Below are positions 5,913-53,110 of a stretch of DNA of 64,000 nucleotides, piece after piece. The number at the start of each line of letters is the position of its first letter. Within the stretch, counting starts at the first letter, position 1. A model generated the notes under the pieces. The model made no database searches. It saw nothing but the letters and a program-made list of their open reading frames with translations, and was not told the DNA's origin. Source of the stretch: Vicinamibacteria bacterium (GTDB lineage: Bacteria; Acidobacteriota; Vicinamibacteria; Fen-336); contig DATMML010000037.1 of NCBI GenBank assembly GCA_035570235.1, positions 152,426-216,425 of the forward strand, given 5' to 3'. Both the position numbers and the translations under genes were made by a program.

Positions 5913-6113
5913 GGACCGCAGGGCGCGTACGCGCCCGGAGGACGAGGATCCCGTTCACCCCTGCCGGGGGACATTTCTACTTGGCACGAAAGGGGCCACT
6001 TCTACGTGGCGTTGACACGAGGGGCCCGACGTTTGACACCTCTCCGCGGGGGGGCTTAGACTCCGCCTGCGCGGCGTCGGCTCAAGGGCCGCGCGCGGCC
6101 GAAAAGCCCCTGC

Positions 6114-14498: not shown

Positions 14499-17400
14499 CT
14501 AGGCGCGGGCCAGGGCGTGGATCTCCTGCAGGCTGACGAGGTCCGTGGCCCGTTCCCGGAGGGCGTGGATGGCGTGGACGGTGGCGGCGGTGGCGGTCAA
14601 GGTGGTCACGACCAGCACCCCGTGCAGGGTGGCGCTCTTGCGGATGGCCCCGTCGTCATAGAAGGACTCGCGGCCGAGGGGGGTATTGAACACGATGGCG
14701 ATTTTCCGGCTCTTGATCAGATCCACCACGTTGGGCCGACCCTCGTTGACCTTGTAGACCATCTGCGCCGCCACCCCGTGCGCGTTCAGGTATTCCGCAG
14801 TGCCCCGGGTGGCCAGGATCGCAAACCCCATCTCCGCGAGGTCCCGCGCGTGGGGCAGGACCCCGGCTTTGTCGTGGTTGTTCACGCTGATGAAGACGGT
14901 GCCGGAGGTGGGGATCTGGAAGCCGGAGGCCATCTGGGCCTTCGCGAAGGCGATGCCGAAGTCCTCGGAGATGCCCATGACCTCCCCCGTGGATTTCATC
15001 TCCGGCCCCAAGATGATGTCGGTGCCGGGGAGCTTGAGGAAGGGGAAGACGGACTCCTTGACGAAGATGCGGGAGACGGTCAGGTCTTCGGTGACGCCTT
15101 GGGCGGCCAGGCTCTTGCCGGCCATGATCCGCGCCGCCACCTTGGCCAGTGGCACCCCGGTGGCCTTGCTCACGAAGGGGGTGGTGCGCGAGGCGCGGGG
15201 GTTCACCTCCAGGACATAGACCACGTCGTTCTTGATGGCGTACTGCACGTTCATGAGCCCGCGCACCCCCAGGGCAAGCCCGAGCTGGCGGGTATAGCGG
15301 CGGATGGTCTCCAGGTGGGGGGCGCTGATGCGGTAGGTGGGCAGAACCATGGCGGAGTCGCCGCTGTGGATCCCCGCCTCCTCGATGTGCTGGAGGATGC
15401 CCCCGATCACCACCCGCTCGCCGTCCCCCAGCGCGTCCACGTCCACCTCGAAGGCGTCCTCCAGGAAGCGGTCCACCAGGATGGGGTGCTCGGGAGAGGC
15501 TTTCACCGCCTCCCGCACGTAGCCCTCCAGGCTCCCCTCGTCGTAGACGATGGCCATGGCCCGGCCTCCCAGGACGTAGGAGGGCCGCACGAGCACGGGG
15601 TAGCCGATGTGGCGGGCGATGACCTTGGCCTCCTCGAGCGAGGTCGCGCTCCCGTTGTCGGGCTGGGGGATCTTGAGCTGGCTCAGGAGGGCGCTGAATC
15701 GCTGGCGGTCCTCGGCGAGGTCTACCGCGTCCGGGCTGGTGCCCAGGATGCGCACCCCCGCCTGGTGCAGGGGCACGGCCAGCCGGAGGGGGGTCTGGCC
15801 CCCGAACTGGATCACCACCCCCGCCGGCTTCTCCAGCTCCAGGACGTTCATCACGTCCTCGAAGGTCAGGGGCTCGAAGTAGAGGCGGTCGGAGGTATCG
15901 TAGTCGGTGGAGACCGTCTCCGGGTTGCAGTTGATCATGATGGTCTCGTACCCCTCCTCCTTGAAGGCGAAGGAGGCGTGGCAGCAGCAGTAGTCGAACT
16001 CGATCCCCTGCCCGATGCGGTTGGGCCCGCTGCCCAGAATCACCACCTTCTTGCGGTCCGTGGGCTCGGCTTCGCACTCCCGCTCGTAGGTCGAGTAGAG
16101 GTAGGGGGTATGCGACTCGAATTCCGCCGCGCAGGTGTCCACGCGCTTGTAGACGGGGACGATACCGGCCCCGATCCGCCGTGCCCGCACCCCCGCTTCG
16201 CTCGCGCCCGTGAGCTGGGCCAGGTGGAGGTCAGAGAACCCCATGCGCTTGGCCTGGCGGAGGGTCCTGTCGTCGACCCCGGGGAGGCCGGGGCCGGGGG
16301 GCGCGGGGGCAGGAGGGGGCGCCCCCCCCGGGGCCGAGTCGGGGGGGAGGGCCTGGCCGCCCGCCCGCGCCACGACCTCTCTCTGCATGTCCACGATCTG
16401 CTGAACCTGGTCCAGGAACCAGGGATCGATCCCGGTCATGCGGTGGATCTCCGCGTGCGGCCAGCCCAGCTCGAGGGCCCGCTTCACGTAGAAGATCCGG
16501 TCGGGGTCGGGAGAGAGGATCTTCTCCTTGATCCGGCGGTCGTCGAGGTCGGCGCGGTTGAAGCCGGAGCTGCTGATCTCCAGCCCCCGCAGCCCCTTCT
16601 GGAGGGCCTCCTTGAAGGTGCGGCCGATGGCCATCACCTCCCCCACCGACTTCATTTGCGTGCCCAGGGTGGGGTTCGCGTCCGGGAACTTCTCGAAGGC
16701 CCAGCGGGGGATCTTCACCACCACGTAGTCCAGCACGGGCTCGAAGCAGGCGGGGGTCACGCGCGTGATGTCGTTTCGGATCTCGTCCAGGTGATAGCCG
16801 ATGGCGAGGAGGGCGGCGATCTTGGCGATGGGAAAGCCGGTGGCCTTGCTGGCCAGGGCGGACGAGCGCGAGACCCGGGGATTCATCTCGATCACGACCA
16901 TGCGGCCGGTGCGGGGGTCGACCGCGAACTGGATGTTGGAGCCCCCCGTCTCCACCCCCACCTCGCGGATGATGGCGCGGGACGCGTTGCGCATGGCCTG
17001 GTACTCGCGGTCGGTCAGGGTCTGGGCGGGGGCCACGGTCACGGAGTCGCCGGTGTGGATCCCCATGGGATCGAAGTTCTCGATCGAGCAGATGACCACG
17101 AAGTTGTCCGCGCGGTCCCGCATGACCTCCAGCTCGTACTCCTTCCACCCGATCACGGACTCCTCGATGAGGATCTCGTGCACGGGGGAGAGATCGAGGC
17201 CCCGCTCGACCAGGTCCTCGAACTCCTCCATGTTGTAGACGATCCCGCCCCCCGTTCCCCCCAGGGTGAAGGAGGGCCGGATCACCGCGGGTAGGCCCGT
17301 GTACTCCAGGACGGAGCGGGCCTCCCCCACCCGGCGGGCAAAGCCGCTCCGGGGCACCTCCAGGCCGATGCGGCCCATGGCCTCCTTGAAAAGCCGCCGG

Positions 17401-17783
17401 TCCTCCCCCACCTCTACCGCCCGCCGGCTGGCCCCGATCAGGCGGGTGCCCAGCCGGTCCAGGACCCCGCGCTTCGACAGCTCCACGGCCAGGTTGAGGG
17501 CGGTCTGGCCGCCCACGGTGGGGAGGAGCGCGTCCGGCCGTTCCCGCTCCAGGATGGCGGTCAAGACCTCGGGGGTCAGGGGCTCCACATAGGTGCGATC
17601 CGCGTACTCCGGGTCGGTCATGATCGTGGCCGGGTTGGAGTTCACGAGCGAGACCCTGAGCCCCTCCTTGCGCAGGACCTTGATGGCCTGGGTGCCGGAG
17701 TAGTCGAACTCGCAGGCCTGGCCGATCACGATCGGTCCGGAGCCAATTACGAGGACGGAGTGGAGAGTGGGGTCCTTGGGCAT
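14499..17783 (-). CDS. carB: carbamoyl-phosphate synthase large subunit
   Basis: 1094 aa, duplicated ATP-grasp halves, highly conserved CarB N-terminus ([24 protein letters not shown]), MGS-like C-terminus. Confidence 0.95.
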
Positions 17784-17859
17784 CGACCCATCAGTATCTC
17801 ACGGTGGAGTCGCCCCCGCAGACGGACGCGGGGAGCGCGGCCGCCTGGCCCTTCCGGCC

Positions 17860-18969
17860 TCAGGCCGGCCGGTGGGCCGCCATGAGCGCGATGAACTCCT
17901 GAAAGAGGTAGTGGCTGTCGTGGGGGCCGGGGCTGGCCTCGGGATGGTACTGGACGGAAATCACGGGCAGGTCCCGGTGGCGGAAGCCCTCCACAGTGCC
18001 GTCGTTCAGGTTCACGTGGGTCTGGATGAACTCGGGTCGGGCGAAGAGGGACGGATCCACGGCGAAGCCGTGGTTCTGGGATGTGATCTCGACCTGCCCG
18101 CTCTTGAGGTTCTTGACCGGATGGTTGGCCCCGCGGTGGCCGAACTTGAGCTTGAAGGTCTTCCCCCCGCAGGCCAAGCCCAGGATCTGGTGCCCGAGGC
18201 AAATCCCGAACACCGGCACCTTCTCCATGAGGACCCGGGTCGCCTCCACCGCGTAGGTGCACGGCTCGGGGTCTCCGGGGCCGTTGGAGAGGAAGATGCC
18301 GTCGGGTTTGAGGGCCAAGGCATCCCGCGCGGAGGTCGTGGCCGGCACCACCGTCACCTGGCAGCCGCCGGCGGCCAGGCTGCGCAGGATGTTCCGCTTC
18401 ATGCCGAAGTCGTAGGCCACCACCCGGTAAGGCAGGCTCTTCGGCCCCGACCCCGCCTCCAATCGATAGGGTTCCGGGCAGGTGACCTCCCGGGCCAGGT
18501 CCAGGCCGATCATGGAGCGGGAGCCCCGCGCGCGCTCCACGAGCGCGGCCCCGTCCCGGGAGAGGGTGGAGATGATGCCCCGCTTGGCCCCGTGGGTGCG
18601 CAGGTGGCGGGTGAGGGCGCGGGTGTCGATCTCGCTGATGCCCACCACCCCCGCCTCGTCCAGGTAGCGGTGCAGCTCCCCCGACGCCCGCCAGGAGGAG
18701 GCCATGGTCGAGACCTCCCGGACCACGAAACCCGCGACCTGGGGGCGCGCTGACTCCACGTCCTCGCGGTTGATGCCGTAGTTGCCGATGTGGGGGTAGG
18801 TCATGGTCACGATCTGCCCCGCGTAGGAGGGATCGGTCAGGACTTCCTGGTAGCCACAGAGGGCGGTGTTGAACACCACCTCTCCCGTGACCTCTCCGGC
18901 GCGCCCGAAGGACTGTCCCTCGAAGAGGGTGCCGTCCTCCAAGGCTAGCGTCGCCGATCGGTGCTCCAC
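17860..18969 (-). CDS. carA: carbamoyl-phosphate synthase small subunit (glutamine amidotransferase)
   Basis: CarA N-domain plus GATase with GICLGHQ and HGFAV motifs; GTG start after a [14 protein letters not shown] (ORF track extends further 5'). Confidence 0.9.
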
Positions 18970-19295
18970 TCTTCCCGTCCCTCTCCTCCGCGGGGCCCGC
19001 GCCCACGGTCGCACTAAGGATATCCGGCCTCGGCTTCTCGTCCAAGGACCGAACCGCTCAACTTCACGCTTGCCTTTTGCGCCCCCCTCTGGAAGGATTC
19101 GCAGCGCATGCCTCACCTCCGCTTGCTGGCCCTGGCGATGGCCTTCGCCCCCGGCGAAGCCCTGGTCCAGCAGGAGGGGTGCCGCCCTCATCGACGCCGG
19201 CGCGCACCCCGGAGCCGCCCAGGCCTGTCCTGGGCGAATGCGTCGAGGTCTCCTTCGGCTACACCTGCAACCATCCCTCGAGAGGCGTGGAACTC

Positions 19296-20540
19296 CCCCA
19301 CGCAATGAGAAGCATGACGACCAAATGGCCCTGGGTACTAGCGATAACCCTGCTCGCCACGTCTTCCCGTGGGGTGAGTCAGGCCGGCGAGCCCGCCGAC
19401 CCTCCGACGCCGGCCGTCGAGGCTCAGCCGCCGCCCCCAGAAAGACCGCCAGAACCGCCCTCTTCCCCGTCGAATCCCGAATGGCAATATGGCGGCTTTG
19501 CAGATGTCGGTTACCTCCACGATTTCAACGATCCCTCCAACCACCTGTTCCGGAGCCGTGGCACCACGTTTCACGTCAACGAAGTGGACTTGAACATGGC
19601 CGGGCTCTATTTGAGGAAATCGACGTCGGAGACCTCGCGCTGGGGAACGGAGCTGACGCTGCAGGCCGGCAAAGATTCGGAGGTCTTCGGATTTTCCGCA
19701 ACCGCACCCAATCTCGCCGGTTCCAATTGGCTCCGGCATCTGGGCCCAACGAACGTCTCCTACCTTGTGCCGGTCGGGAAGGGACTCACCCTTCAGGGCG
19801 GAATCTTCGGCAGCTTTATCGGGTACGACTCCCTCTACGCCAAGGACAATCTCAACTACACGCGCCCGTGGGGTGCAGATTTCACGCCCTACTTCATGTT
19901 GGGCGTGAACGCTCAATACCCGTTCTCTGCAAAACTGACCGCAACTCTGCTCCTGCTCAACGGCTATTGGCACCTGGCCCACGCCAACAACGTTCCCAGT
20001 GCAGGTGGCCAGCTTGCGTACAAGGCGACCGAACATCTGACCTTGAAGGAAACGGTTCTTTACGGGCCGCACCAGTCCGACACCTCGCTCGCGCTCTGGC
20101 GTTTCCTATCCGACAGCATCGCCGAATGGAAGGGGGAGCGACTCACCGTGGCCTTCGACTATTTCGTCGGAACGGAGAGAATCGCCGCTCCCGGAAATCC
20201 CCGAGCGCTCTGGATGTCCGCCCAACTGCCGCTGCACCGCGTGATCAACCCTCGACTCAGCCTCACGATCCGCCCTGAGGTCTACTGGGACCGCGACGGC
20301 CGCACCACGGGATTCCAACAGACGGTGAAGGCGAATACGACGACGCTCGAGTACCGAATTCCGCTCCGCCGCGCCAGCGCCATCCTGCGGCTAGAGCACC
20401 GCATCGACGATTCACGCGGACCCGGCGGAGGCTTCTTCAATGACGGAGAGCTGTCGCCGGGAGTCGTCGGCCTCACGCCAACCCAGAATCTCCTGGGCCT
20501 AGGGGTGATACTGACTTTCGACTCGAGCTCCCATCCTTGA
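19296..20540 (+). CDS. putative outer-membrane beta-barrel protein / porin
   Basis: Signal peptide, Pro-rich linker, alternating amphipathic β-strand pattern, aromatic C-terminus; GC content visibly lower than flanks. Confidence 0.45.
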
Positions 20541-26506: not shown

Positions 26507-26743
26507 ATCCCCCGAGCCCTGCCTACCCCTCTAATACGTTCTGCGAACGCGGAAAGAGCGTGGCAAAAGCGAGGCGAAGCACCGCACCCCTGGGCGTTCG
26601 GACTTTAGCACCAAGGTGAAAAGGTGTCAACGCGAGAGGCGCTCAAGTCACGGAGAGGGAAGGGGTTGCGGTGTCGGGTTCGGGAACAACCGAGCGTCCG
26701 CGGCCGTATGGACTGCCGGAGGCTCACCTATAATGGAGGCGCA

Positions 26744-39270: not shown

Positions 39271-39323
39271 GGCGACCCCTTATTCTAGAAGTGTCTCGGT
39301 TGTGGGTGTCCTCGATCCGTCAT

Positions 39324-39350
39324 CATAACTAATAGTGGACGCTAGTTATG
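39324..39350. promoter_or_regulatory. inverted repeat CATAACTA-N11-TAGTTATG in an AT-rich divergent promoter region
   Basis: Perfect 8-bp inverted repeat, with a third CATAAC copy at 39364; in a 120-bp AT-rich island between the FGE-like gene and the M28 peptidase gene. Confidence 0.3.
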
Positions 39351-39408
39351 GCATATACTATAACATAACACTCTAGGTGTTTCCAGTTCTACCAAGCGAG
39401 GACCCCAG

Positions 39409-41049
39409 ATGAGACTGCTTCTGGTCTGCGCCCTGGCCACCTTGACCGCACTCGGTCTGGCCGCGTTCCGGCCGGCCGTGGTGACCCCCCTGGAGAGAGC
39501 GGCCGCCCAGTCGATCCGCGCCGAGCAGCTGCGCGCGGACGTCCGCTTCCTGGTGAGCGATCTCCTCGACGGTCGTGGTCCGGGGAGCCGCGGAGACCGG
39601 TTGGCCCAAGCCTTCATCGCCGCGCGGATGGAGGGCATCGGCCTCGAGCCCGGCGCTCCGGATGGCTCCTGGTTCCAGCCCTTCGACATCGTGGGTGTGA
39701 GCAGCCGGCCCGCGGGGCGGATCCTCCTTGCGCGGGGGGCGGTGAAGGAGGAGCTGTGGCCGCTCGAGGACGTGGTGGCCGCCGCGGGGGTTCCGTCTCC
39801 GGAAGCGCGGATCGAAGGGGCGGAGATCGTGTTCGGGGGCTACGGCATCGTGGCCCCGGAGTTCGGCGGGGACGACGACAAGGGAGCCGATCTCAGGGGC
39901 AAAGTCCTCTTGATGATGAACCGCGAGCCCGAGAGCGGCCCCTCGAGCTTCGCGGGCGGGGGGCGGCACCAATGCGGGCGCGGGGACGAGAAGTACGACC
40001 TGGCCGCGAAAATGGGGGCCGCGGGGGCGATCCTCATCCACACCGCGCGCTCTGCCGGCTGCCCCTGGTCGCTCGTCGAGTCCTCTTGGGGCGGAGAGCA
40101 GTTCAGCTTGCCGAGCGAGGGCGGCCCCCAGCTCCGCGTGAAGGCCTGGATCACCGAGGAGGCCGCGAGACGAATCGCTCGCCTCTCCGGCCAGGACCTG
40201 GACACGCTCCGGCGGGGCGCCGAGAGGAGGGACTTCCGCCCCCTGCCCCTGGGCGTAGCCTTGACCCTCGCCTTGCGGAGCGAGGTGAGGCGCGGGCAGA
40301 CGGCCAACGTGATCGGCCGGCTGCCCGGCAGCGACCTGGGCCTGTCCCGGGAGGGGGTCGTCTACACCGCCCACCACGACCACCTCGGGGCTAAGCCCGG
40401 CCCAGACGCGAGCGCGAGCGCCGCCTGCGACCACGCCTCCGGGGTGGCCGTCCTCCTGGCCATCGCCGAAGCCATGAAGGCGTTGCCGCAGACCCCGCCC
40501 CGCACCACGTTCTTCGCGGCGGTGGGAGGAGAGGAGTGGGGCCGGCTCGGCTCGCGGTACCTCGCCGGGCGGCCTCCCCTGCCCGCGGGGCGATTGGCCG
40601 CGGACATCAACGTGGAGGGCATCGCGATCGGGGGGAGAACGCGGGACGTCACGCAGATCGATCGGGGCCAGTCCTCCCTCGACGATTGGGTCGAGGCCCT
40701 GGCCGCCGTCCAGGATCGCCACGTGGTCTCTCCTCCGTCCCCGGACGCATGCTCGCTTCCCGACCCCTTCAGCTTCGCCCGCATCAGAGTTCCGGTGGCG
40801 TCCCTCGGCTCGGGCACGGAGGCCATCGGCCAGCCGGCGGGCGGGGGTCAGAAACCAGACGAGACCGGGAAGGCCGAGGCGTCTCGTCGGCTCGCAGAGG
40901 ATGGGGACTTCGCGGGAGCGGTGGAGGACGCCCAGCTCCTCTTCTACCTGGGGGTCAAGGTCGGGAGCGCCACCCCCCGACCGACCTGGCGGGGGAGCGA
41001 CGAGTTCAAGGCCACGCGGGAGGCACGGGCCGAGCCGGGGATACGCTGA
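39409..41049 (+). CDS. M28 family metallopeptidase (aminopeptidase) with PA domain
   Basis: Signal peptide; HHDHLG and DxASGVAVLLAIAEA zinc-ligand motifs; PA-domain insertion. Confidence 0.8.
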   Translation: MRLLLVCALATLTALGLAAFRPAVVTPLERAAAQSIRAEQLRADVRFLVSDLLDGRGPGSRGDRLAQAFIAARMEGIGLEPGAPDGSWFQPFDIVGVSSRPAGRILLARGAVKEELWPLEDVVAAAGVPSPEARIEGAEIVFGGYGIVAPEFGGDDDKGADLRGKVLLMMNREPESGPSSFAGGGRHQCGRGDEKYDLAAKMGAAGAILIHTARSAGCPWSLVESSWGGEQFSLPSEGGPQLRVKAWITEEAARRIARLSGQDLDTLRRGAERRDFRPLPLGVALTLALRSEVRRGQTANVIGRLPGSDLGLSREGVVYTAHHDHLGAKPGPDASASAACDHASGVAVLLAIAEAMKALPQTPPRTTFFAAVGGEEWGRLGSRYLAGRPPLPAGRLAADINVEGIAIGGRTRDVTQIDRGQSSLDDWVEALAAVQDRHVVSPPSPDACSLPDPFSFARIRVPVASLGSGTEAIGQPAGGGQKPDETGKAEASRRLAEDGDFAGAVEDAQLLFYLGVKVGSATPRPTWRGSDEFKATREARAEPGIR

Positions 41050-44023: not shown

Positions 44024-44955
44024 GAGGCCGCCCCCGCGCCGCCCCCGAGCAGGAGGTAGAGCACGGCCATGCGGACGGCCACCCCGTTGGTGACCTGGTC
44101 CAAGATCACGGAGTAGGGCCCGTCGGCCACCTCGCTCGCGATCTCCACCCCGCGGTTCATGGGGCCGGGGTGAAGGATCAGCACGTCCTTCTTGGCCCGC
44201 CGGACCCGCTCCTCGGTGAGGCCGAAGCGGTTGAAGAACTCCCGGGGGGAGGGGAGGTAGCCGCCCGTCATCCGCTCCCGCTGGATCCGCAGCACCATGA
44301 TCGCGTCCGCCCCCTCCACCGCCTCCTCGATCCGCCAGGTGACGGGGGCCAGCCGCTCGATCCCGGGGGGCACCAGGGTGGGAGGGGCGCACAGCACGAC
44401 CGAGGCCCCCATCTTCGAGAGCAGCCACAGGTTCGAGCGGGCCACCCGGCTGTGCAGCAGGTCCCCTACGATGGCCACCCGCAGACCCTTGAGCCGCCCC
44501 TTGCGCTGGCGGAGGGTGAGGGCGTCGAGGAGGGCCTGGGTGGGGTGCTCGTGGGCCCCGTCCCCCGCGTTCACGATCGCGGACCGGCAATGCCGGGCCA
44601 GGAAGTGCGGGGCCCCGGAGGAGGCGTGGCGGATCACGATCATGTCTGGGTTCATGGCCTCGAGGTTCTTGGCGGTGTCGAGCAGCGTCTCTCCCTTCTG
44701 GACGCTGGAGGTGGCGGTCGAGATGCTGAGGCTGTCCGCGGAGAGGACCTTCTCCGCGATCTCGAACGACGAGCGGGTGCGCGTGGAGGCCTCGTAGAAG
44801 AGGTTGACCACGGTCTTGCCCCTGAGCACGGGCACCTTTTTGATGGGGCGGTCCAGCACCTCCTTCAGCCCGTCCGCGGTGTCGAGGACCACCTGGATAT
44901 CGGCCGGCTCCAGGGGCTCGATGCCCAGGAGATGGCGGTGGGGGAACGCGCTCAC
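44020..44955 (-). CDS. pyrB: aspartate carbamoyltransferase catalytic subunit
   Basis: STRTR carbamoyl-phosphate motif, HPTQ and HPGP motifs. Confidence 0.9.
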
Positions 44956-45569
44956 TTCCCTCTCCTTCCCCGGGCCCGCCCGCGGCGGGCCCCCCCCCGC
45001 TGGGCCCGCCGGGCCCGGCGCTCCAGGAGCAGGACCCCGTCCCTTCCGTCCTCCTCCCGGAGAAGCACCTGCACGATCTCCTGCCGCGCCGTGGCCAGGC
45101 TCCGACCCGCGTAGTCGGCGCGGATGGGGAGCTCGCGGTGGCCCCGGTCCACGAGCACGGCCAGCTCGATGCGGTCGGGGCGGCCGAAGTCGATGAGCTG
45201 GTCGAGGGCGGCGCGCACCGTGCGCCCGGTGAAGAGCACGTCGTCCACCACGATCACCGTGCGGCCGTCGATGGAGAAGGGGATCTCGGTTCCCTTGGTG
45301 ATGGGCTGGCTCGCGATCATCGTGAAATCGTCGCGGTAGAGGGAGATGTCCAGGGCCCCCACCGCGGGCTCGACCCCGCTCGCCTCCCGGAGGAGACCGG
45401 CCAGCCGGCGGGCGAGGGGCACCCCGCGGCTGCGCACCCCCACCAGCACCACCCCCCGCATGTCGGGGTGGCGCTCCAGGATCTCGTGGGCCATGCGGGC
45501 CAGGGTGCGGGCCACGCGGCCCGCGTCCATGAGAACTGCCTTCTCAATCTGGGGAGAGGGGCCGGCCAT
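44952..45569 (-). CDS. pyrR: bifunctional pyrimidine operon regulator / uracil phosphoribosyltransferase PyrR
   Basis: PRTase motif [13 protein letters not shown]; conserved PyrR N-terminus; unusual Arg-rich C-terminal tail; stop overlaps the pyrB start (GTGA). Confidence 0.85.
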
Positions 45570-48274: not shown

Positions 48275-48349
48275 CAGGAGAGCCTACCCGATTTGGCGCG
48301 CCCTCGCCCCCGTCGACGAACCGCGCCGCCGCCGGTTATCATCGGGGGA

Positions 48350-49192
48350 ATGCCCGCCGACGAGCCCGCTCCTCTCCTCGCCCGCGAGCCGCTGGAGGGC
48401 GCCTACGTGCTCCTCACCTTCCGGCACGCGGAGACGGCCCGCGCCGCCCGCGCTGGCCAGTTCGTGATGATCAAGGCGGGCACGAGCCCCGAGCTTCCCC
48501 TCCGCAGGCCCTTCTCGGTCATGAGCGTGGACCGCGCGCGGCAAACCTTCACCCTCTTCCTGAAGGCGGTGGGGCCGGGGAGCCGGGCCCTGGCCGGCCT
48601 GCGCGTGGGGGAGGTGGCCCAGTGCCTGGGACCCCTGGGCCGATCGTTCCCGCCCCCGGGCGCGGGGGAGGAGGCCTTGCTCGTGGCCGGCGGCTACGGG
48701 ATCGCCCCCTTCCGCCTCTTCTGCGAAGAGCTCGGCACCGGCCCCCGGGCCCGCGTGTTCTACGGCGGCCGCACCGGTCACGATCTGCAACTGCGCGACC
48801 GCTTCGCGGACCTCAAGGTGCCGCTCCTGCCCGCCACCGAGGACGGGAGCGTCGGCCACCGCGGGCGGGTCACCTCCGCGCTCGAGGCCTACCTGGACGG
48901 GCGGCCAGGCCCGGTGCGGCTCTACGCCTGCGGCCCCCCCGCGATGCTCCAGGCGGTGGCGAGCTTGGCCGGCGAGCGGGGCCTCGAGGCCTCGGTGAGC
49001 CTCGATCCCTGGATGGGCTGCGGCCTCGGCACCTGCCTGAGCTGCGTGGTCTGGACCCAGGAGCGGGAAGAGCCGCGGCCCCACTACCGCTGCGCCTGCA
49101 CCGAGGGCCCGGTCTTCGACGCCAAAACCGTGGTCTGGCCGGGAGAGGTGACGTCGCTCGCCCGGCGGCGGCCGGAGAGGTCCCCCGCGTGA
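48350..49192 (+). CDS. pyrK: dihydroorotate dehydrogenase electron transfer subunit
   Basis: FAD/NAD-binding FNR-like fold (RPFSV) and C-terminal CGxGxCxxC...C [2Fe-2S] motif (MGCGLGTCLSCVV); ATG at 48350 inside the larger track ORF. Confidence 0.85.
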   Translation: MPADEPAPLLAREPLEGAYVLLTFRHAETARAARAGQFVMIKAGTSPELPLRRPFSVMSVDRARQTFTLFLKAVGPGSRALAGLRVGEVAQCLGPLGRSFPPPGAGEEALLVAGGYGIAPFRLFCEELGTGPRARVFYGGRTGHDLQLRDRFADLKVPLLPATEDGSVGHRGRVTSALEAYLDGRPGPVRLYACGPPAMLQAVASLAGERGLEASVSLDPWMGCGLGTCLSCVVWTQEREEPRPHYRCACTEGPVFDAKTVVWPGEVTSLARRRPERSPA

Positions 49193-50130
49193 ACCTCTCC
49201 GTCGAGATCGCGGGCCTGCGTCTCAAGAACCCCTTGATCGCCGCCTCCGGCACGTTCGGGTACGGGGTCGAGTACGAGGGGATCTTGGATTTGTCCCGTC
49301 TCGGCGGCCTCGTCTCCAAGGGGCTCTACCTCGAGCCCCGCGACGGCTGCCCCCCCCCGCGCATCGTGGAGACGCCGTCGGGGCTCCTGAACGCGATCGG
49401 CCTCCAGGGGGTGGGCGTCCGGGCCTTCGTGCGAGACGTCCTGCCCCGCCTCCTCGTCCACGACACCGCAATCTTCGTGAACGTCTGCGGCGACACCGTC
49501 GAGGAATACGCGGAGGTAGCGCGTATCCTGGAAGACGCGCCGGGGGTGGCCGGGCTCGAGATCAACATCTCCTGCCCCAACGTCAAGAAGGGGGGGATGG
49601 CCTTTGGTGGCGATCCCCGCATGACCCATGAGGTGGTGGCGGCGGTGCGCAAAGCCACCCTCCGGCCCGTGATCCCGAAGCTCTCGCCCAACGTGGCCGA
49701 CATCACCGTCTTCGCGCGGGCGGCCGCGGAGGCGGGCGCGGATGCCCTCTCCTGCATCAACACCCTCCTGGGCCTGGCCATCGACGTGGAGACCGCGAGG
49801 CCCGCCCTCGCCTTCGGCACCGGGGGCCTCTCGGGTCCCGCAATCCGGCCCCTGGCCGTGCGGATGGCCTGGCAAGCGGCCCGCGCGGTCAAGATCCCCG
49901 TCATCGGCGTGGGGGGGATCGCGTCCGCCCGCGACGCGCTCGAGTTCCTGATCGCGGGCTGCCGGGCCGTTCAGGTGGGGACCGCGAACTTCGTCAACGT
50001 GGGCATCTACGATCGGATCCTCGCCGACCTCGGCCACTACCTGGAGCGGCACGGACGGACGGACATCAATGAGGTCGTGGCCACCCTCTCCTATCCCGAT
50101 TCGGCCCCGGCGCCCCCGAGAAGCGAATGA
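49189..50130 (+). CDS. pyrD: dihydroorotate dehydrogenase catalytic subunit (class 1B)
   Basis: [15 protein letters not shown], active-site Cys motif, FMN-binding GGI motif; GTG start overlaps the pyrK stop. Confidence 0.9.
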
Positions 50131-50822
50131 CGCCCCGGGAGCGCCTGATCGTGGCCCTGGACCTGCCCGGCCGCGAGGAGGCGCTCGCCCTCGTCGGCCG
50201 CCTGGCCGGCCGGGCGGGGATGTTCAAGGTCGGAAGCCGGCTCTTCACCGCGGCGGGGCCGGACCTCGTGCGCGAGCTTTTGGCCCGGGGCGAGAAGGTC
50301 TTTTTGGACCTCAAGTACCACGACATCCCCGACGTCGTGGGCGCCGCCGTGGGCGAGGCCGCCCGCTTGGGGGTGTCGCTCCTGGACGTCCACGCCCTCG
50401 GCGGCCCGGCCATGATCGAGGCGGCGGCGGGGGCTCTGCCCGCCCTCGGCACGCGCCTTCTGGCCGTGACCATCCTGACCAGCCACGACCAGCCGGACCT
50501 GGACCAGGTCGGGATCGGGGGGCCGCTCACGGAGTCGGTGCGGCGCCTCGCTCTGCTGGCCAAGGCCTCCGGAGTGGACGGTGTGGTGGCCTCGCCCCAC
50601 GAGGCCGCTCTCCTCCGCGAGGCGTGCGGTCCCCAATTCCTGATCGTGACCCCGGGCATCCGGCCGGCGGGGGCGCGGGCCGGCGACCAGGCGCGCGCCG
50701 CCACCCCCGGCGCCGCCCTGGCCGCGGGAGCGGACTACCTCGTGGTGGGCCGGCCCATCACCGAGGCCCCGGATCCGTCCGCCGCGCTCGAGGCCATCGT
50801 CCGGGAGATGGAAGCGGTTTGA
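50127..50822 (+). CDS. pyrF: orotidine 5'-phosphate decarboxylase
   Basis: LIVALD...[10 protein letters not shown] catalytic lysine motif; start overlaps the pyrD stop. Confidence 0.9.
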
Positions 50823-50856
50823 CCCCCTCCCCCCCGCTCTGGTACGCTTGGAAGTT

Positions 50857-50887
50857 GAAAATGAAATTGAAATTCAATTTCATTATG
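50857..50887. promoter_or_regulatory. Fur-box-like AT-rich palindrome (TGAAATTGAA-A-TTCAATTTCA) overlapping the start codon of the cytochrome c/FTR1 gene
   Basis: Perfect 10-1-10 palindrome of GAAAAT/GAAATT hexamers (consensus Fur hexamer GATAAT) in an otherwise 70% GC context. Confidence 0.5.
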
Positions 50888-52801
50888 TCCCTCGTCCTCC
50901 TGGCCAGCGGCCTCCTGGCCGCTTGCGCGGGGGCGCCCGCGGCCCCCCAAGCGCCCGCCGCGGACGGGGGCGACGGCCAGCGCCTGGTCGCTCTCCTCGA
51001 CTACATCAGCGGCGACTACCGGCGCGCGGTCCGCGGCCGGCAGGTCCTGGTGGTGAGCGAGTACGAGGAGCAGATCCGGTTCGCGGGCGAGGCCCGCGGA
51101 CTGGCTCGCGGCCTCCTGGGCCCCTCCTCCTCCCCGGACGATCCCCTCCTGACCGGGCTCGCCGAGGTGGAGGCCCAGGTCCGGGCGAAGGCGGAGCCGG
51201 AAGCAGTGGCGGAGGTCTGCCGGTCGGCGCGCGAGCAGGCGGTGGCGCGCTTCAGCCTCCGCACCATGCCCGTCGAGCGGCCCTCCCTCCCCCGCGCCCA
51301 GCGCCTCTACGCCGAGTCCTGCACCCCCTGCCACGGCGCGCAGGGGAACGCCGACACCGAGCGGGCCCGTTCCTTCAACCCTCCCCCCGCGCGCTTCCGC
51401 GACCCCTCCCGCCTGGGCGAGATGTCTCCCTACCGGATCTACAACGCGCTCACCTTCGGCGTCCCCGGCACGGCCATGGCCTCCTTCGACAGCCTGTCCC
51501 CCGCCGACCGCTGGAGCCTGGCCTTCTACGTCTTCCGGCTGGGGCACGAGGGCGAGAGGGCGGGAGCCCCCGTGGCCATGACCCTGGCCGACATGGCCGG
51601 CCGCTCCGACCTCGAGATCGCCGCCGGCCTTAAGGCCGAGAAGCACCCCGACCCCGACGGTGCGCTCGTCTACCTGCGGCGCGAGGCGGCCTTCACGGAG
51701 GCGCCGGCGGGGGTCGGGATCGACCGCACGCGGGAGATGGCCCGGCAGGCGGTGCGCCTGTACACCCAGGGGCGGGCGCGCGAGGCGGACCGCCTGGCCC
51801 TCGACGCCTACCTGCAGGGCTTCGAGCCGCTGGAGATGCGCCTGCGGGCCCGGGACGCCGCGGGCACGCTCCAGGTGGAGACCGGCTTCCGCGACCTTAG
51901 GGCCTCGATGGTTCAGGGGGAGACCGCCGATCGTGTGCGGGCCCGGGGCCAGGCCCTGGATGGCCGGCTGGCCTGGCTGGGGGAGGGAGGGCGGCGGCCC
52001 CTCGTCCCCCTGGCCGCGGGCTTCCTGATCTACTTCCGGGAGGGCGTCGAGGCCGCGCTCCTCGTGGGCGCTCTCCTGGCCGGCCTCAGGCGCCTCGGCC
52101 GCCCCGAGGCCGCGCGGTACCTCCACGCGGGCTGGCTTCTGGCCCTGCCCGCGGGCGTGGTCACCTGGTGGGTCTTCGACCGCGCCATCTCCCTGGGCTC
52201 GAGCCAGCGCGAGCTGATGGAGGCGCTCGTCGCCCTCCTGGCCGCGGCCGTGCTCTTCTCGGTGAGCTTCTGGATGATCTCCAAGGCGGAGTCCCGCCAC
52301 TGGATGGGCTACCTCAAGCAGAAGCTCGAGGCGGGGCTCTCCCGCCGCAGCCTCCTCGTCCTCTCCGGCCTGGCTTTCCTAGCCGTCTATCGGGAGGCCG
52401 CCGAGACCATCCTCTTCACTCAGGCCCTGCTCCTGGAGTCGGAGCTCCATCGGGCCGAGGTCTGGACGGGGGCGCTTCTGGGCCTCCTGGCGGTGGTGGT
52501 GGCGGCCGTCCTCATGAACCGCACCGTCCTGCGTCTGCCCCTCGGTCCCTTCTTCGCGGTCTCCAGCCTCCTCCTCTGCGGCCTCGCCATCTCCTTCGCG
52601 GGGACGGGCATCTACCAGCTGGTGGCGACGGGCTACCTGACCCCGCGCCCGGTGCCCTTCCCGGAGGTGCCCTGGATGGGCATCCATCCCGACCTGACCG
52701 GCCTGCTCGTTCAGCTCACGATCCTCCTCATCATCGCGGGGGCGGGGCTCCTCACCCTCCTGCGGCGGCCCCTGGCCCAGTCCGGCGGTCACGCCGCCTG
52801 A
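50861..52801 (+). CDS. cytochrome c / FTR1-family iron permease fusion (lipoprotein signal)
   Basis: MKLKF...LLAACAG lipobox; CTPCHG heme-binding CxxCH; two RExxE motifs (FREGVEA, YREAAET) in a 7-TM FTR1 permease domain. Confidence 0.8.
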   Translation: MKLKFNFIMSLVLLASGLLAACAGAPAAPQAPAADGGDGQRLVALLDYISGDYRRAVRGRQVLVVSEYEEQIRFAGEARGLARGLLGPSSSPDDPLLTGLAEVEAQVRAKAEPEAVAEVCRSAREQAVARFSLRTMPVERPSLPRAQRLYAESCTPCHGAQGNADTERARSFNPPPARFRDPSRLGEMSPYRIYNALTFGVPGTAMASFDSLSPADRWSLAFYVFRLGHEGERAGAPVAMTLADMAGRSDLEIAAGLKAEKHPDPDGALVYLRREAAFTEAPAGVGIDRTREMARQAVRLYTQGRAREADRLALDAYLQGFEPLEMRLRARDAAGTLQVETGFRDLRASMVQGETADRVRARGQALDGRLAWLGEGGRRPLVPLAAGFLIYFREGVEAALLVGALLAGLRRLGRPEAARYLHAGWLLALPAGVVTWWVFDRAISLGSSQRELMEALVALLAAAVLFSVSFWMISKAESRHWMGYLKQKLEAGLSRRSLLVLSGLAFLAVYREAAETILFTQALLLESELHRAEVWTGALLGLLAVVVAAVLMNRTVLRLPLGPFFAVSSLLLCGLAISFAGTGIYQLVATGYLTPRPVPFPEVPWMGIHPDLTGLLVQLTILLIIAGAGLLTLLRRPLAQSGGHAA

Positions 52802-52809
52802 AGCCGACG

Positions 52810-53067
52810 GTGTCCCCGCCCACCCTCACCCTGCTCGGCAGACCGGACTGCCGTCTCTGCCATGAGATGCGGGCGGTGGCGGAGCGGGTGCTCCTCGAGC
52901 CCGCCCGGGTCGTAGAGCGGGACGTCCGCGAGGACCCCGAGCTCGAGAAGCTCTACCGGCTGGAGATTCCGGTGCTGCTTTGGGGAGAGCGGGAGGTCGT
53001 CCGGCACCGCGTGACGGAGGCCGAGCTCCGCGGGCGGCTGCAGGAGCTCGGCTTCGGCCGCCCCTGA
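52810..53067 (+). CDS. glutaredoxin-like small protein (DUF836/YruB-like)
   Basis: LLGRPDCRLCHEM CxxC motif in an 85-aa thioredoxin fold; GTG start 9 nt after the upstream stop. Confidence 0.55.
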   Translation: MSPPTLTLLGRPDCRLCHEMRAVAERVLLEPARVVERDVREDPELEKLYRLEIPVLLWGEREVVRHRVTEAELRGRLQELGFGRP

Positions 53068-53070
53068 GGG

Positions 53071-53110
53071 AAAAAAGACGGCGTGCCCCAGGGGGGCACG
53101 CCGTCTTTGC
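53071..53110. terminator. bidirectional rho-independent terminator (GACGGCGTGCCCC-AGG-GGGGCACGCCGTC flanked by A6 / T3)
   Basis: 13-bp perfect GC-rich stem, 3-nt loop, A-run upstream and T-run downstream; sits between convergent genes. Confidence 0.6.

Follow-up and report, generated by a model that had tools for sequence, protein, structure and literature searches.

An iron permease gene in Vicinamibacteria DNA begins inside a perfect, AT-rich palindrome, which raises the question of what is being maintained at its start codon: a protein-binding site in the DNA, a structure or initiation signal in the mRNA, or the encoded peptide itself. The earlier note on this DNA had read the palindrome as a Fur-box-like operator partly embedded in coding sequence. 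Here, we examine this reading in the 64,000-nucleotide stretch that carries the gene (hereafter the window) and in orthologous loci.

The palindrome, its promoter and its operon

The 10-1-10 palindrome described in the earlier note, TGAAATTGAA-A-TTCAATTTCA, is exact at positions 50862-50882 as read from the sequence. It in fact extends further: two more bases on each side are complementary, producing a perfect 12-1-12 palindrome (AATGAAATTGAA-A-TTCAATTTCATT, 50860-50884) with its dyad centre at 50872 (no strand is assigned to this element or to the hexamer array, 7-1-7 unit and terminal hairpin described below). This block is the most AT-rich 25-mer of the window, whose GC content is 70.4%. 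Among 100 dinucleotide-preserving shuffles of the window, no match to the palindrome was found at three or fewer mismatches (0.00 expected), and the same scan of the real window returned the site itself and its own copy at a 6-bp offset. A chance palindrome was rejected on the basis of these shuffles and of the retention of the site across orthologues (see below).

The reading of the block as GAAAAT/GAAATT hexamers was also correct, within an array longer than previously described. Specifically, the putative operator consists of six hexamers in phase (GAAGTT GAAAAT GAAATT GAAATT C AATTTC ATTATG, 50851-50887) that start 2 nt past the -10 element and span the predicted transcription start, the ATG (50861-50863) and codons 1-9. 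Matches to the position weight matrix (PWM) fall at 50855, 50861 and 50867, in a 6-bp register. The array contains a perfect 7-1-7 unit, TGAAATT-C-AATTTCA (50868-50882), with the geometry of one Fur-family dimer; this unit agrees at 12 of 14 positions with TGAAAATnATTTTCA, the actinobacterial Zur-type box, and at 10 of 14 with TGATAATnATTATCA. The window lineage has one GAAATT hexamer more than the family, equivalent to two additional codons (K-L), and this extra hexamer shifts the dyad centre 6 bp downstream.

The permease has a predicted promoter of its own on the plus strand, with a -35 element conserved in orthologues (TTGACC, 50819-50824), an 18-nt spacer, an extended -10 element (TGgTACGCT, 50840-50848, with TG at 50840-50841 and TACGCT at 50843-50848) and 12 nt between the end of the -10 element and the ATG. 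Of 68 distinct upstream regions of orthologues, 63 contain the pattern TTGAC[CGT]-17/18-TAnnnT. Across these 63 loci, TACGCT is the commonest -10 variant (25/63), TG occupies -15/-14 in 41/63, the ATG follows the end of the -10 element at 10-14 nt (most often 12) and the array starts 2-6 nt after the -10 element. Within the window, TTGAC-N18/19-TAnnnT is seen three times against 0.11 expected (27-fold), in every case ahead of a gene. The two further instances in the window have ordinary leaders of ~50 and ~95 nt, and the one upstream of 26505 has a clear Shine-Dalgarno (SD) sequence. A generic consensus promoter scan passed over the permease promoter, since TACGCT shares only 3/6 positions with TATAAT.

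No conserved SD sequence precedes the permease ATG among orthologous loci. With only 10-14 nt separating promoter and ATG, the mRNA would be nearly leaderless, forcing the operator into codons 1-7; judged from promoter geometry alone, transcription would start at about 50854-50858, leaving a leader of ~4-6 nt. The array would thus overlap the core promoter or transcription start, as is expected of a Fur box, with the promoter itself predicted from conservation and enrichment.

The three genes described next lie on the plus strand. The upstream gene is pyrF (orotidine 5'-phosphate decarboxylase, 50127-50822; Pfam OMPdecase, E 9e-59), the stop codon of which (TGA, 50820-50822) falls within the -35 element; in many related loci, the 3' end of pyrF (AIVREME) lies directly upstream of the FTR1 promoter. 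The cytochrome c/FTR1-family permease gene (50861-52801, 646 aa) matches Pfam FTR1 at 2e-22 (80 bits; cut-off 25.3), is also above the cut-offs of Cytochrome_CBB3 and Cytochrom_C, and encodes C154, C157 and H158, invariant in the alignment (c-type cytochrome CxxCH). Its lipoprotein-type signal peptide (MKLKFNFIMSLVLLASGLLAAC) begins with MKLKFNF, and codons 1-7 lie within the operator, in agreement with the earlier note. With 101 bits against the NCBIfam EfeU/Ftr1 equivalog, below the cut-off of 255, the permease is therefore not an EfeU orthologue; it has 496 homologues, the closest named ones being from Vicinamibacteria. The second gene of the operon starts with GTG 8 nt past the permease stop (52810-53067; Pfam Glrx-like PF05768, E 3e-14) and encodes a small glutaredoxin-like CxxC protein of 85 aa, also found downstream of the permease in loci L087, L088 and L103. 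A GC-rich hairpin between convergent genes (AAAGACGGCGTGCCCC-agg-GGGGCACGCCGTCTTT, 53074-53108) is likely the end of the operon and would function as a terminator; a consensus terminator scan missed it because its T-run is only 3. Among ~40 genes of the window annotated with Pfam, neither a Fur gene nor any other iron-uptake gene was recognisable.

Selection at the nucleotide level

The orthologue set comprised 78 loci from soil metagenomes and MAGs, representing 72 distinct start regions, and the site is present in all 72, with at least 17 of the 23 positions of the consensus TTGAAAATGAAATTCATTTTCAA in each and an exact match in 21. The consensus holds 1.3-1.8 bits per position, with an information profile symmetric about position 12; conservation runs 6 nt upstream of the ATG and drops right after motif position 23. 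The number of hexamers varies among copies (including the 6-bp insertion of the window and MKLK/MKMK variants) while the 6-bp register is held, and many loci have a further upstream GAAGTT hexamer that lies at or before the predicted transcription start. At the protein level, the N-terminus follows M[KDN]x[IKNV]F[KNR] in 108 of 120 close homologues: relatives start with MKFIFK/N, MDFIFR or MKSIFK, and the window protein with MKLKFNF. More than 100 orthologues show this constraint of the site on the N-terminus, which also turns up sporadically outside the phylum.

Synonymous choice in codons 2-7 tracks the DNA motif, against the codon bias of the genome. Specifically, the ratio of AAA to AAG is 57:19 in these codons versus 20:331 in the rest of the gene, that of ATT to ATC 65:18 versus 20:947, and that of AAT to AAC 37:9 versus 17:258, and TTT:TTC stands at 0:121 in codons 2-7; GC content is 23% in this segment versus 74% in the rest of the gene. 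The motif also occurs in both orientations, with an asymmetric variant (CTGAAAATGAAATCCATTTTCAA) at 11 distinct loci, where it encodes MKSIFK, and its reverse complement at 4 loci, where it encodes MDFIFR. The peptide thus varies non-conservatively (position 2 is K, D or N) while the DNA motif is held.

Loci in which the gene arrangement differs provide further evidence. In L074 and L075, the permease start codon overlaps the pyrF stop, promoter and motif are both missing, and the protein has an ordinary signal peptide: site and peptide are lost together. In L103, promoter and motif are kept, and the ATG of the motif opens a 9-codon ORF (MNFIFNFIE*) ending in a TGA that overlaps the real ATG, the site persisting as a detached mini-ORF. 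From these sequence comparisons, selection is seen to act at the nucleotide level and not on the peptide. The proposal of the earlier note that an operator is embedded in the coding sequence and shapes the N-terminus is strongly supported by the conservation of the site in 72/72 start regions, by codon choice, by the occurrence of both orientations and by the three rearranged loci.

Candidate regulators of the site

We infer which regulator acts here, which metal it senses and the repression itself from the form and setting of the site. On this basis, the palindrome probably forms the centre of an operator bound by a dimeric metal-sensing repressor of the Fur family, Fur-Fe2+ being the best candidate. 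When iron is replete, repressor dimers would occupy the overlapping 7-1-7 units and either keep RNA polymerase out or prevent the open complex from forming; when iron is scarce, the sigma-70-type promoter of the permease would fire. The product would be a nearly leaderless bicistronic mRNA encoding the permease (50861-52801) and the glutaredoxin-like protein (52810-53067) and ending at the 53074-53108 hairpin. With essentially no 5' UTR, the operator would have to sit in coding sequence and would therefore fix the first residues of the protein. In leaderless genes, as found in Actinobacteria and Deinococcus, operators may overlap the start codon, and in a gene that lacks a 5' UTR, any repressor site near +1 must fall within the first codons and constrain them. 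The permease differs from fully leaderless genes in that its predicted leader is ~4-6 nt rather than zero, given the 10-14-nt gap between -10 element and ATG.

Fur boxes have been described by hexamer and by overlapping 7-1-7 models (PMC11353095), and the site shares this architecture, being an AT-rich inverted repeat of ~19 bp made of hexamers or overlapping 7-1-7 units. The family core 19-mer (GAAAATGAAATTCATTTTC) agrees with the E. coli Fur box (GATAATGATAATCATTATC) at 15/19 positions (p ~5e-4 by composition-preserving permutation), and the window's own site at only 13/19 (p ~0.03). Like a classical Fur box, the site is a promoter-proximal AT-rich dyad of 6-bp units and overlapping 7-1-7 units, variable in hexamer number, at an iron-uptake gene. 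Unlike a classical Fur box, its hexamer is GAAA(A/T)T rather than GATAAT, its array occupies about +1 to +30, past the -10 element, rather than covering the -35 and -10 elements, the putative operator overlaps the start codon and 7-9 codons, and it belongs to no regulon visible in the window and related loci (805 kb, mostly permease flanks). The consensus sequences of FNR, CRP, IdeR, LexA, the Irr ICE box, ArgR, and B. subtilis PerR and Zur were all worse matches than the Fur- and Zur-type boxes.

Iron-regulated FTR1/EfeU-type operons include efeUOB of E. coli and of B. subtilis, ftr1-p19 of C. jejuni and ftrABCD of Brucella and Bordetella. As in such operons, an FTR1 permease would here be under the iron-responsive repressor of its lineage, and the partner proteins handle iron redox chemistry. 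The operon differs from them in that the permease is fused to N-terminal lipoprotein-anchored and cytochrome c domains and has a small glutaredoxin-like protein as its only partner. FTR1 operons, among them the iron-regulated alpha-proteobacterial operons that serve as a comparison case, have been predicted to answer to the particular iron regulator that each lineage employs (PMC1698941). The literature on acidobacterial Fur boxes, on Fur boxes over leaderless start codons and on cytochrome c/FTR1 fusions yielded nothing specific.

Searches for the regulator and for further sites gave a mixed picture. Neither tblastn (queries: Fur of E. coli; Fur, PerR and Zur of B. subtilis; IdeR of M. tuberculosis) nor a small Fur-family HMM recovered a Fur- or DtxR-family gene from the window or from any Vicinamibacteria locus. 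A PWM scan of both strands of the window and related loci, 805 kb consisting mostly of permease flanks with few iron genes, found no second site of at least 8 bits. The one fur gene found adjacent to a site comes from another phylum: in L091, a Myxococcota-like locus whose permease is 40% identical at the protein level, only two strong PWM matches occur in 5.9 kb, the first at the permease start and the second in the divergent promoter region adjoining a PF01475 FUR gene that lies 1.3 kb away. The product of this gene scores highest against ferric-uptake-regulator models (90 bits, followed by PerR at 64 and Zur at 43), and a motif-like block is retained at the corresponding position in fur orthologues with 79-80% identity. 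Used as a query, the L091 Fur recovered Myxococcota relatives only and no Vicinamibacteria Fur, and a more distant Fur paralogue from Polyangiaceae has no such site in four loci. Iron-responsive repression by Fur, as put forward in the earlier note, therefore stands as plausible at the sequence level: the 15/19 match, the precedent of FTR1 genes under local iron regulators (PMC1698941) and the fur gene of L091 speak for it, and the missing second site and local fur gene speak against it. In these 805 kb, strongly biased to permease flanks, the expected enrichment of the palindrome at other iron-uptake genes was not seen, with no second site down to 8 bits.

The motif alone cannot tell Fur from Zur or from another Fur-family paralogue. 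The same promoter-proximal operator might thus be read by a different regulator, either a Zur-, Mur- or PerR-like paralogue or an unrelated dedicated dimeric repressor, sensing zinc, manganese, redox state or haem. We regard this as doubtful, if worth serious consideration. The half-sites fit the Zur-type 7-1-7 box (TGAAAATnATTTTCA) at 13/14 positions, better than the Fur 7-1-7 at 11/14, with TGAAAAT/ATTTTCA nearly identical to the half-site of the actinobacterial box; the confinement of the site to the permease gene in 805 kb would suit a dedicated regulator; and one product of the operon is a haem protein, the other a CxxC redox protein. However, the two best half-sites of the family consensus are 7 bp apart and not 1 bp as in a Zur box, and the family site is therefore a three-hexamer Fur-type box, which as a full 19-mer fits the Fur box at 15/19. 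Furthermore, the gene is no typical member of a zinc regulon, no regulator gene is conserved beside the operon (its neighbours differ among loci), the site-adjacent regulator of L091 is best matched by ferric-uptake-regulator rather than PerR or Zur models, and relatives of this iron permease family are under iron regulators (PMC1698941).

RNA-level and peptide-level readings, and what the element means

The same letters could in principle serve two purposes, as an operator that dictates the first seven residues of the lipoprotein signal peptide and as a 5' hairpin in the nearly leaderless mRNA that masks the AUG, such that iron would control both transcription and translation initiation through a single 23-bp sequence. 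In a bolder form of this unlikely reading, the regulator would not be Fur; an unrecognised factor dedicated to a single operon would account for the lack of a second site in 805 kb. The range of such a dual-use element, retained across very large evolutionary distances, would cover Acidobacteriota and, sporadically, Myxococcota and a 43% GC lineage.

It is less probable still that the element works mainly as RNA, an AU-rich 5'-terminal hairpin that buries the AUG and adjusts translation or mRNA stability in response to temperature, an RNA-binding protein or a small RNA. A hairpin with the AUG in its stem is predicted for the window (-9.4 kcal/mol, z = -4.3 versus shuffles), the family alignment has 86.7% of its cells paired, a mild excess over shuffles (7-11 of 500), and pair 8/16 shows changes from U-A to U-G. 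Yet several relatives fold no better than shuffled sequences (z -1.2 to +0.15), pair 7/17 is unpaired in 10/27 site types, and changes are overwhelmingly one-sided, with the double changes that compensatory pairing would leave in only 2/10 pairs. Conserved motif positions 1-3, together with GAAGTT in many loci, lie at or before the predicted transcription start, and an indel of 6 bp, which leaves the hexamers in phase, is the kind of change tolerated by a protein that reads hexamers. A search of 50600-51100 against Rfam returned no match, only sub-threshold noise. The loss of the element from genes lacking their own 5' end fits the RNA and DNA readings equally.

A non-regulatory role, in which the AT-rich block would be an SD-independent initiation element offering an unstructured A/U-rich start to a leaderless mRNA at 70% GC, appears very unlikely. 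Such an element would be in keeping with a leader of only ~4-6 nt devoid of a conserved SD sequence, with the low GC content of codons 2-7 (23% against 74% elsewhere), with its dispensability where translation is coupled to pyrF and with the retention of the motif ATG as a coupled mini-ORF in L103. However, AU-richness leaves unexplained the 1.5-1.8 bits at 14 positions, the invariant G/C positions (TTC 121:0 TTT), the exactly symmetric dyad, the finding of the site in either orientation and the conservation upstream of the ATG; in addition, a stable hairpin over the AUG would hinder initiation. Finally, conservation of the peptide MKFIFKF for its own sake, as a special signal-peptide n-region or a regulatory nascent peptide, is suggested by the shared pattern in 108/120 close homologues and by the persistence of the peptide in the L103 mini-ORF, but is extremely improbable given the charge reversal at position 2 (K/D/N) and the variation at position 3 (F/S/L/V) through single-base changes that keep the DNA motif, the synonymous sites fixed against genome codon bias, the conservation extending 6 nt 5' of the ATG, and the fact that L074 and L075 manage without it.

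A Fur-type operator would be a clean example of a type of switch that is already known, and the general picture of Fur-type regulation is unchanged. The locus is a clean natural example of overlapping codes, in which a predicted transcription-factor site sets the N-terminus of a protein, and it comes with natural controls that separate DNA-level from protein-level selection: orientation isomers, hexamer (two-codon) indels, operon-fused orthologues and the L103 mini-ORF. It also carries a warning for annotation, in that the conserved MKFIF start of this permease family would reflect the predicted operator and not a functional peptide motif. For the Vicinamibacteria, an abundant and barely studied class of soil acidobacteria, our results provide a candidate metalloregulator operator and promoter architecture, with a consensus (TTGAAAATGAAATTCATTTTCAA) that can serve directly in searches of complete genomes for members of the iron regulon.

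A conserved palindrome over the permease start codon

The cytochrome c/FTR1-family iron permease gene (window 50861-52801, + strand) is overlapped at its start codon by a perfect 10-1-10 palindrome, TGAAATTGAA-A-TTCAATTTCA, at 50862-50882, with the sequence that an earlier note had reported. With two more complementary bases per side, the palindrome extends to 12-1-12 (50860-50884; centre at 50872). The palindrome is the most AT-rich block of the window, the overall GC content of which is 70.4%, and lies in an array of 6-bp units (50851-50887: GAAGTT GAAAAT GAAATT GAAATT C AATTTC ATTATG) that contains a perfect 7-1-7 unit, TGAAATT-C-AATTTCA (50868-50882). When up to three mismatches were allowed, no match occurred in 100 dinucleotide-preserving shuffles of the window, and the same search on the real window returned the site and its self-copy offset by exactly 6 bp. 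The palindrome is a genuine, non-random and functional element. A possible further operator is the stretch ranking second in AT content (39320-39385), which lies just 5' of the gene for an M28 peptidase (ATG at 39409) and has an inverted repeat of the 8-11-8 type, CATAACTA-N11-TAGTTATG, followed by ATATACTATAACATAAC.

The closest permease homologues belong to Vicinamibacteria (Acidobacteriota; identity up to 93%), and their N-termini are strikingly alike (MKFIFKI, MDFIFNF, MNFIFRM, MKSIFKI and MKLKFNF), the remaining signal peptide being variable. This pattern occurs in 108 of 120 close homologues versus 7 of 142 full-length representatives (29-59% identity). In 86 orthologous loci, drawn from collections of genomes and metagenomes, every one of the 72 distinct start regions having upstream sequence agrees with the family consensus TTGAAAATGAAATTCATTTTCAA in at least 17 of 23 positions, and 21 are identical to it. 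The consensus is itself palindromic (perfect 11-1-11), the ATG occupying positions 7-9; its information content, 1.3-1.8 bits at most positions and symmetric about position 12, collapses directly past position 23. One extra GAAATT hexamer (two codons, K-L), which the window shares with its three closest relatives (L001, L007 and L021), moved the dyad centre by 6 bp, thereby creating the window's particular palindrome. Two other orthologous loci (L004:10005-10031 and L040:871-897) have an added inverted repeat, CATGGAT-N11-ATCCATG, across the motif and next codons, and their predicted RNA fold pairs this repeat instead of the family palindrome. A 34% identical permease from a 54% GC organism (L094:490-546) is without a GAAAAT-type site; a perfect 8-1-8 palindrome, TTGAGAAC-C-GTTCTCAA, lies about 20 nt 5' of its ATG, possibly an operator of this gene particular to that lineage.

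DNA and peptide as targets of selection

Judged from codon usage and natural variants, the constraint on codons 2-7 acts on nucleotides, not on the peptide. Across 68 distinct orthologues, codon preference in codons 2-7 is opposite to that in the remainder of the gene: AAA:AAG is 57:19 versus 20:331, ATT:ATC is 65:18 versus 20:947 and AAT:AAC is 37:9 versus 17:258, with GC at 23% versus 74%; within codons 2-7, TTC occurs 121 times and TTT never. Residues 2 (K/D/N) and 3 (F/S/L/V) vary by single-base changes that keep the motif. The asymmetric variant CTGAAAATGAAATCCATTTTCAA (11 distinct loci) encodes MKSIFK, and its exact reverse complement (4 distinct loci) encodes MDFIFR; occurrence in both orientations is what a dyad-symmetric DNA site permits. 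Conservation also runs 6 nt upstream of the ATG, outside the reading frame.

Three orthologues serve as natural controls. In L074 (2480-2530) and L075 (4050-4085), the start codon of the permease shares bases with the pyrF stop (GTGA in one locus, ATGA in the other), promoter and motif are absent and the protein has an ordinary lipoprotein signal (MRWTRAPALV...); the permease was here absorbed into the pyr operon, with promoter, motif and MKFIF peptide all lost. In L103, a 68% identity orthologue (2455-2525), promoter and motif are intact, and the motif ATG starts a 9-codon ORF, MNFIFNFIE*, the TGA of which overlaps the true permease ATG (ATGA), suggesting termination-reinitiation coupling from a leaderless mini-ORF. 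The motif thus tracks the promoter, not the protein, and the N-terminal peptide is dispensable. These controls, the reversed codon choice and the two orientations strongly support the proposal that the N-terminal residues are shaped by the operator.

Promoter, leader and operon

TTGAC[CGT], a 17-18 nt spacer and TAnnnT occur in 63 of 68 distinct upstream regions, 41 of these 63 promoters having TG at -15/-14, and the distance from the end of the -10 element to the ATG is 10-14 nt (mode 12). In the window, the -35 element TTGACC (50819-50824) overlaps the stop codon of pyrF, which ends at 50822, only 38 bp from the permease, and the extended -10 element is TGgTACGCT (50840-50848). A generic promoter scanner did not call this promoter, as TACGCT agrees with TATAAT at just three of six positions. 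In the whole window, TTGAC-N18/19-TAnnnT is found three times versus 0.11 expected, always 5' of a gene, and looks like this organism's housekeeping promoter type. The only other two matches, at 6033-6062 (+) and 26602-26630 (-), precede genes for a CDP-alcohol phosphatidyltransferase and a Ser/Thr kinase with PEGA and TonB_C domains. Their leaders are ordinary (about 50 and 95 nt, with a clear Shine-Dalgarno sequence upstream of 26505), so that the very short promoter-ATG spacing is special to the permease.

From promoter geometry, we infer a permease transcription start about 6-9 nt past the -10 element and a leader of about 4-6 nt, which leaves no room for a Shine-Dalgarno sequence; none is conserved at orthologous permease starts. 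If this start holds, the near-absent leader explains why the operator lies inside coding sequence: the putative operator would occupy about +1 to +30, where no alternative position is available.

The permease (646 aa) has a lipoprotein-type signal peptide, MKLKFNFIMSLVLLASGLLAAC, and c-type cytochrome and FTR1 permease domains. A glutaredoxin-like CxxC gene (PF05768; 52810-53067) follows after 8 nt and is kept after the permease at L087:12019-12219, L088:12020-12205 and L103:4424-4735; the two genes are a conserved module. In the window and these loci, the PF05768 protein (61-103 aa) is always encoded 3' of the permease. A GC-rich hairpin between convergent genes (53074-53108) was not called by a terminator scanner. 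Pyrimidine genes surround this iron permease operon (14499-19524, -; 44952-45569, -; 48284-50822, +), comprising carB and carA, a pyrK-like/pyrD region, pyrF and a phosphoribosyltransferase; synteny of pyrF and permease is common among relatives, and the functional reason is not evident.

The candidate regulator

Against the E. coli Fur box, the 19-mer at the core of the family consensus agrees at 15 of 19 positions, a score reached in about 5 of 10,000 composition-preserving shuffles; for the window copy, the agreement is 13 of 19 (p ~0.03). The permease site shares the Fur hallmarks of a hexamer array, overlapping 7-1-7 units and tolerance of an added hexamer (PMC11353095). Its half-sites fit the Zur-type 7-1-7 box, TGAAAATnATTTTCA, at least as well as Fur, so the motif alone points to the family without singling out a paralogue. 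The function of the gene suggests iron, and FTR1 operons of alpha-proteobacteria are predicted to be controlled by each lineage's own iron regulator (PMC1698941).

Neither the window nor the Vicinamibacteria loci contain a Fur-family or DtxR-family gene, the window has no other recognisable iron-uptake genes, and 805 kb (window and all loci, both strands; mostly permease flanks) held no second site of at least 8 bits. These absences speak against a global Fur box, and the enrichment of the palindrome at other iron-uptake genes, which the earlier note had set as its test, is not seen in this DNA; with a sample so biased towards permease flanks, a wider regulon may nevertheless exist. Distant relatives with the N-terminal signature also bear the site at the start codon: L089 (GC 43%; ATGATAATGGATTTCATTTTCAC, with a canonical GATAAT hexamer), L090 (GC 70%; TTAATAATGAAATCCATTTTCAA) and L091, L092 and L093 (GC 69-73%). 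In L091, a PF01475 FUR gene lies 1.3 kb from the permease; its product scores highest against ferric-uptake-regulator models and has relatives in Polyangiaceae and Archangiaceae. The only two strong matches in L091 to the weight matrix of family sites are the permease start and the divergent promoter region adjoining fur, and in fur orthologues (79-80% identity) a motif-like AT-rich block occupies the corresponding position; the site is missing from the locus of a more distant Fur paralogue in Polyangiaceae. On this Myxococcota-like contig (L091:5090-5256), fur is divergent from a gene for a 299-aa secreted/outer-membrane-like protein of unknown family, with a second, weaker site over the annotated start of the 299-aa gene. 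The minus strand reads CTTGACA, 17 nt, TAAGTT, 4 nt and motif, the permease promoter/operator layout, and the gene pair with its motif block recurs in L099-L102.

The palindrome could additionally act at the RNA level, as a transcript hairpin with the AUG in its stem, predicted for the window at -9.4 kcal/mol (z = -4.3). Several relatives fold no better than shuffled sequence, variation is mostly one-sided (double changes affect just 2 of the 10 pairs), 10 of 27 site types leave one pair unformed and Rfam holds no matching family. A protein that reads DNA accounts better for the conserved hexamer phase and for conservation at or 5' of the inferred start.

The best explanation of the palindrome is that a Fur-family repressor, probably Fur, uses it as its operator; the candidate operator covers the inferred transcription start and the opening codons of an iron-permease operon that would be nearly leaderless. 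Iron-responsive Fur repression, as originally claimed, remains a likely proposal. The permease start shows very cleanly how DNA and protein codes can overlap, and TTGAAAATGAAATTCATTTTCAA is a motif that can be put to use in a phylum so far little studied.
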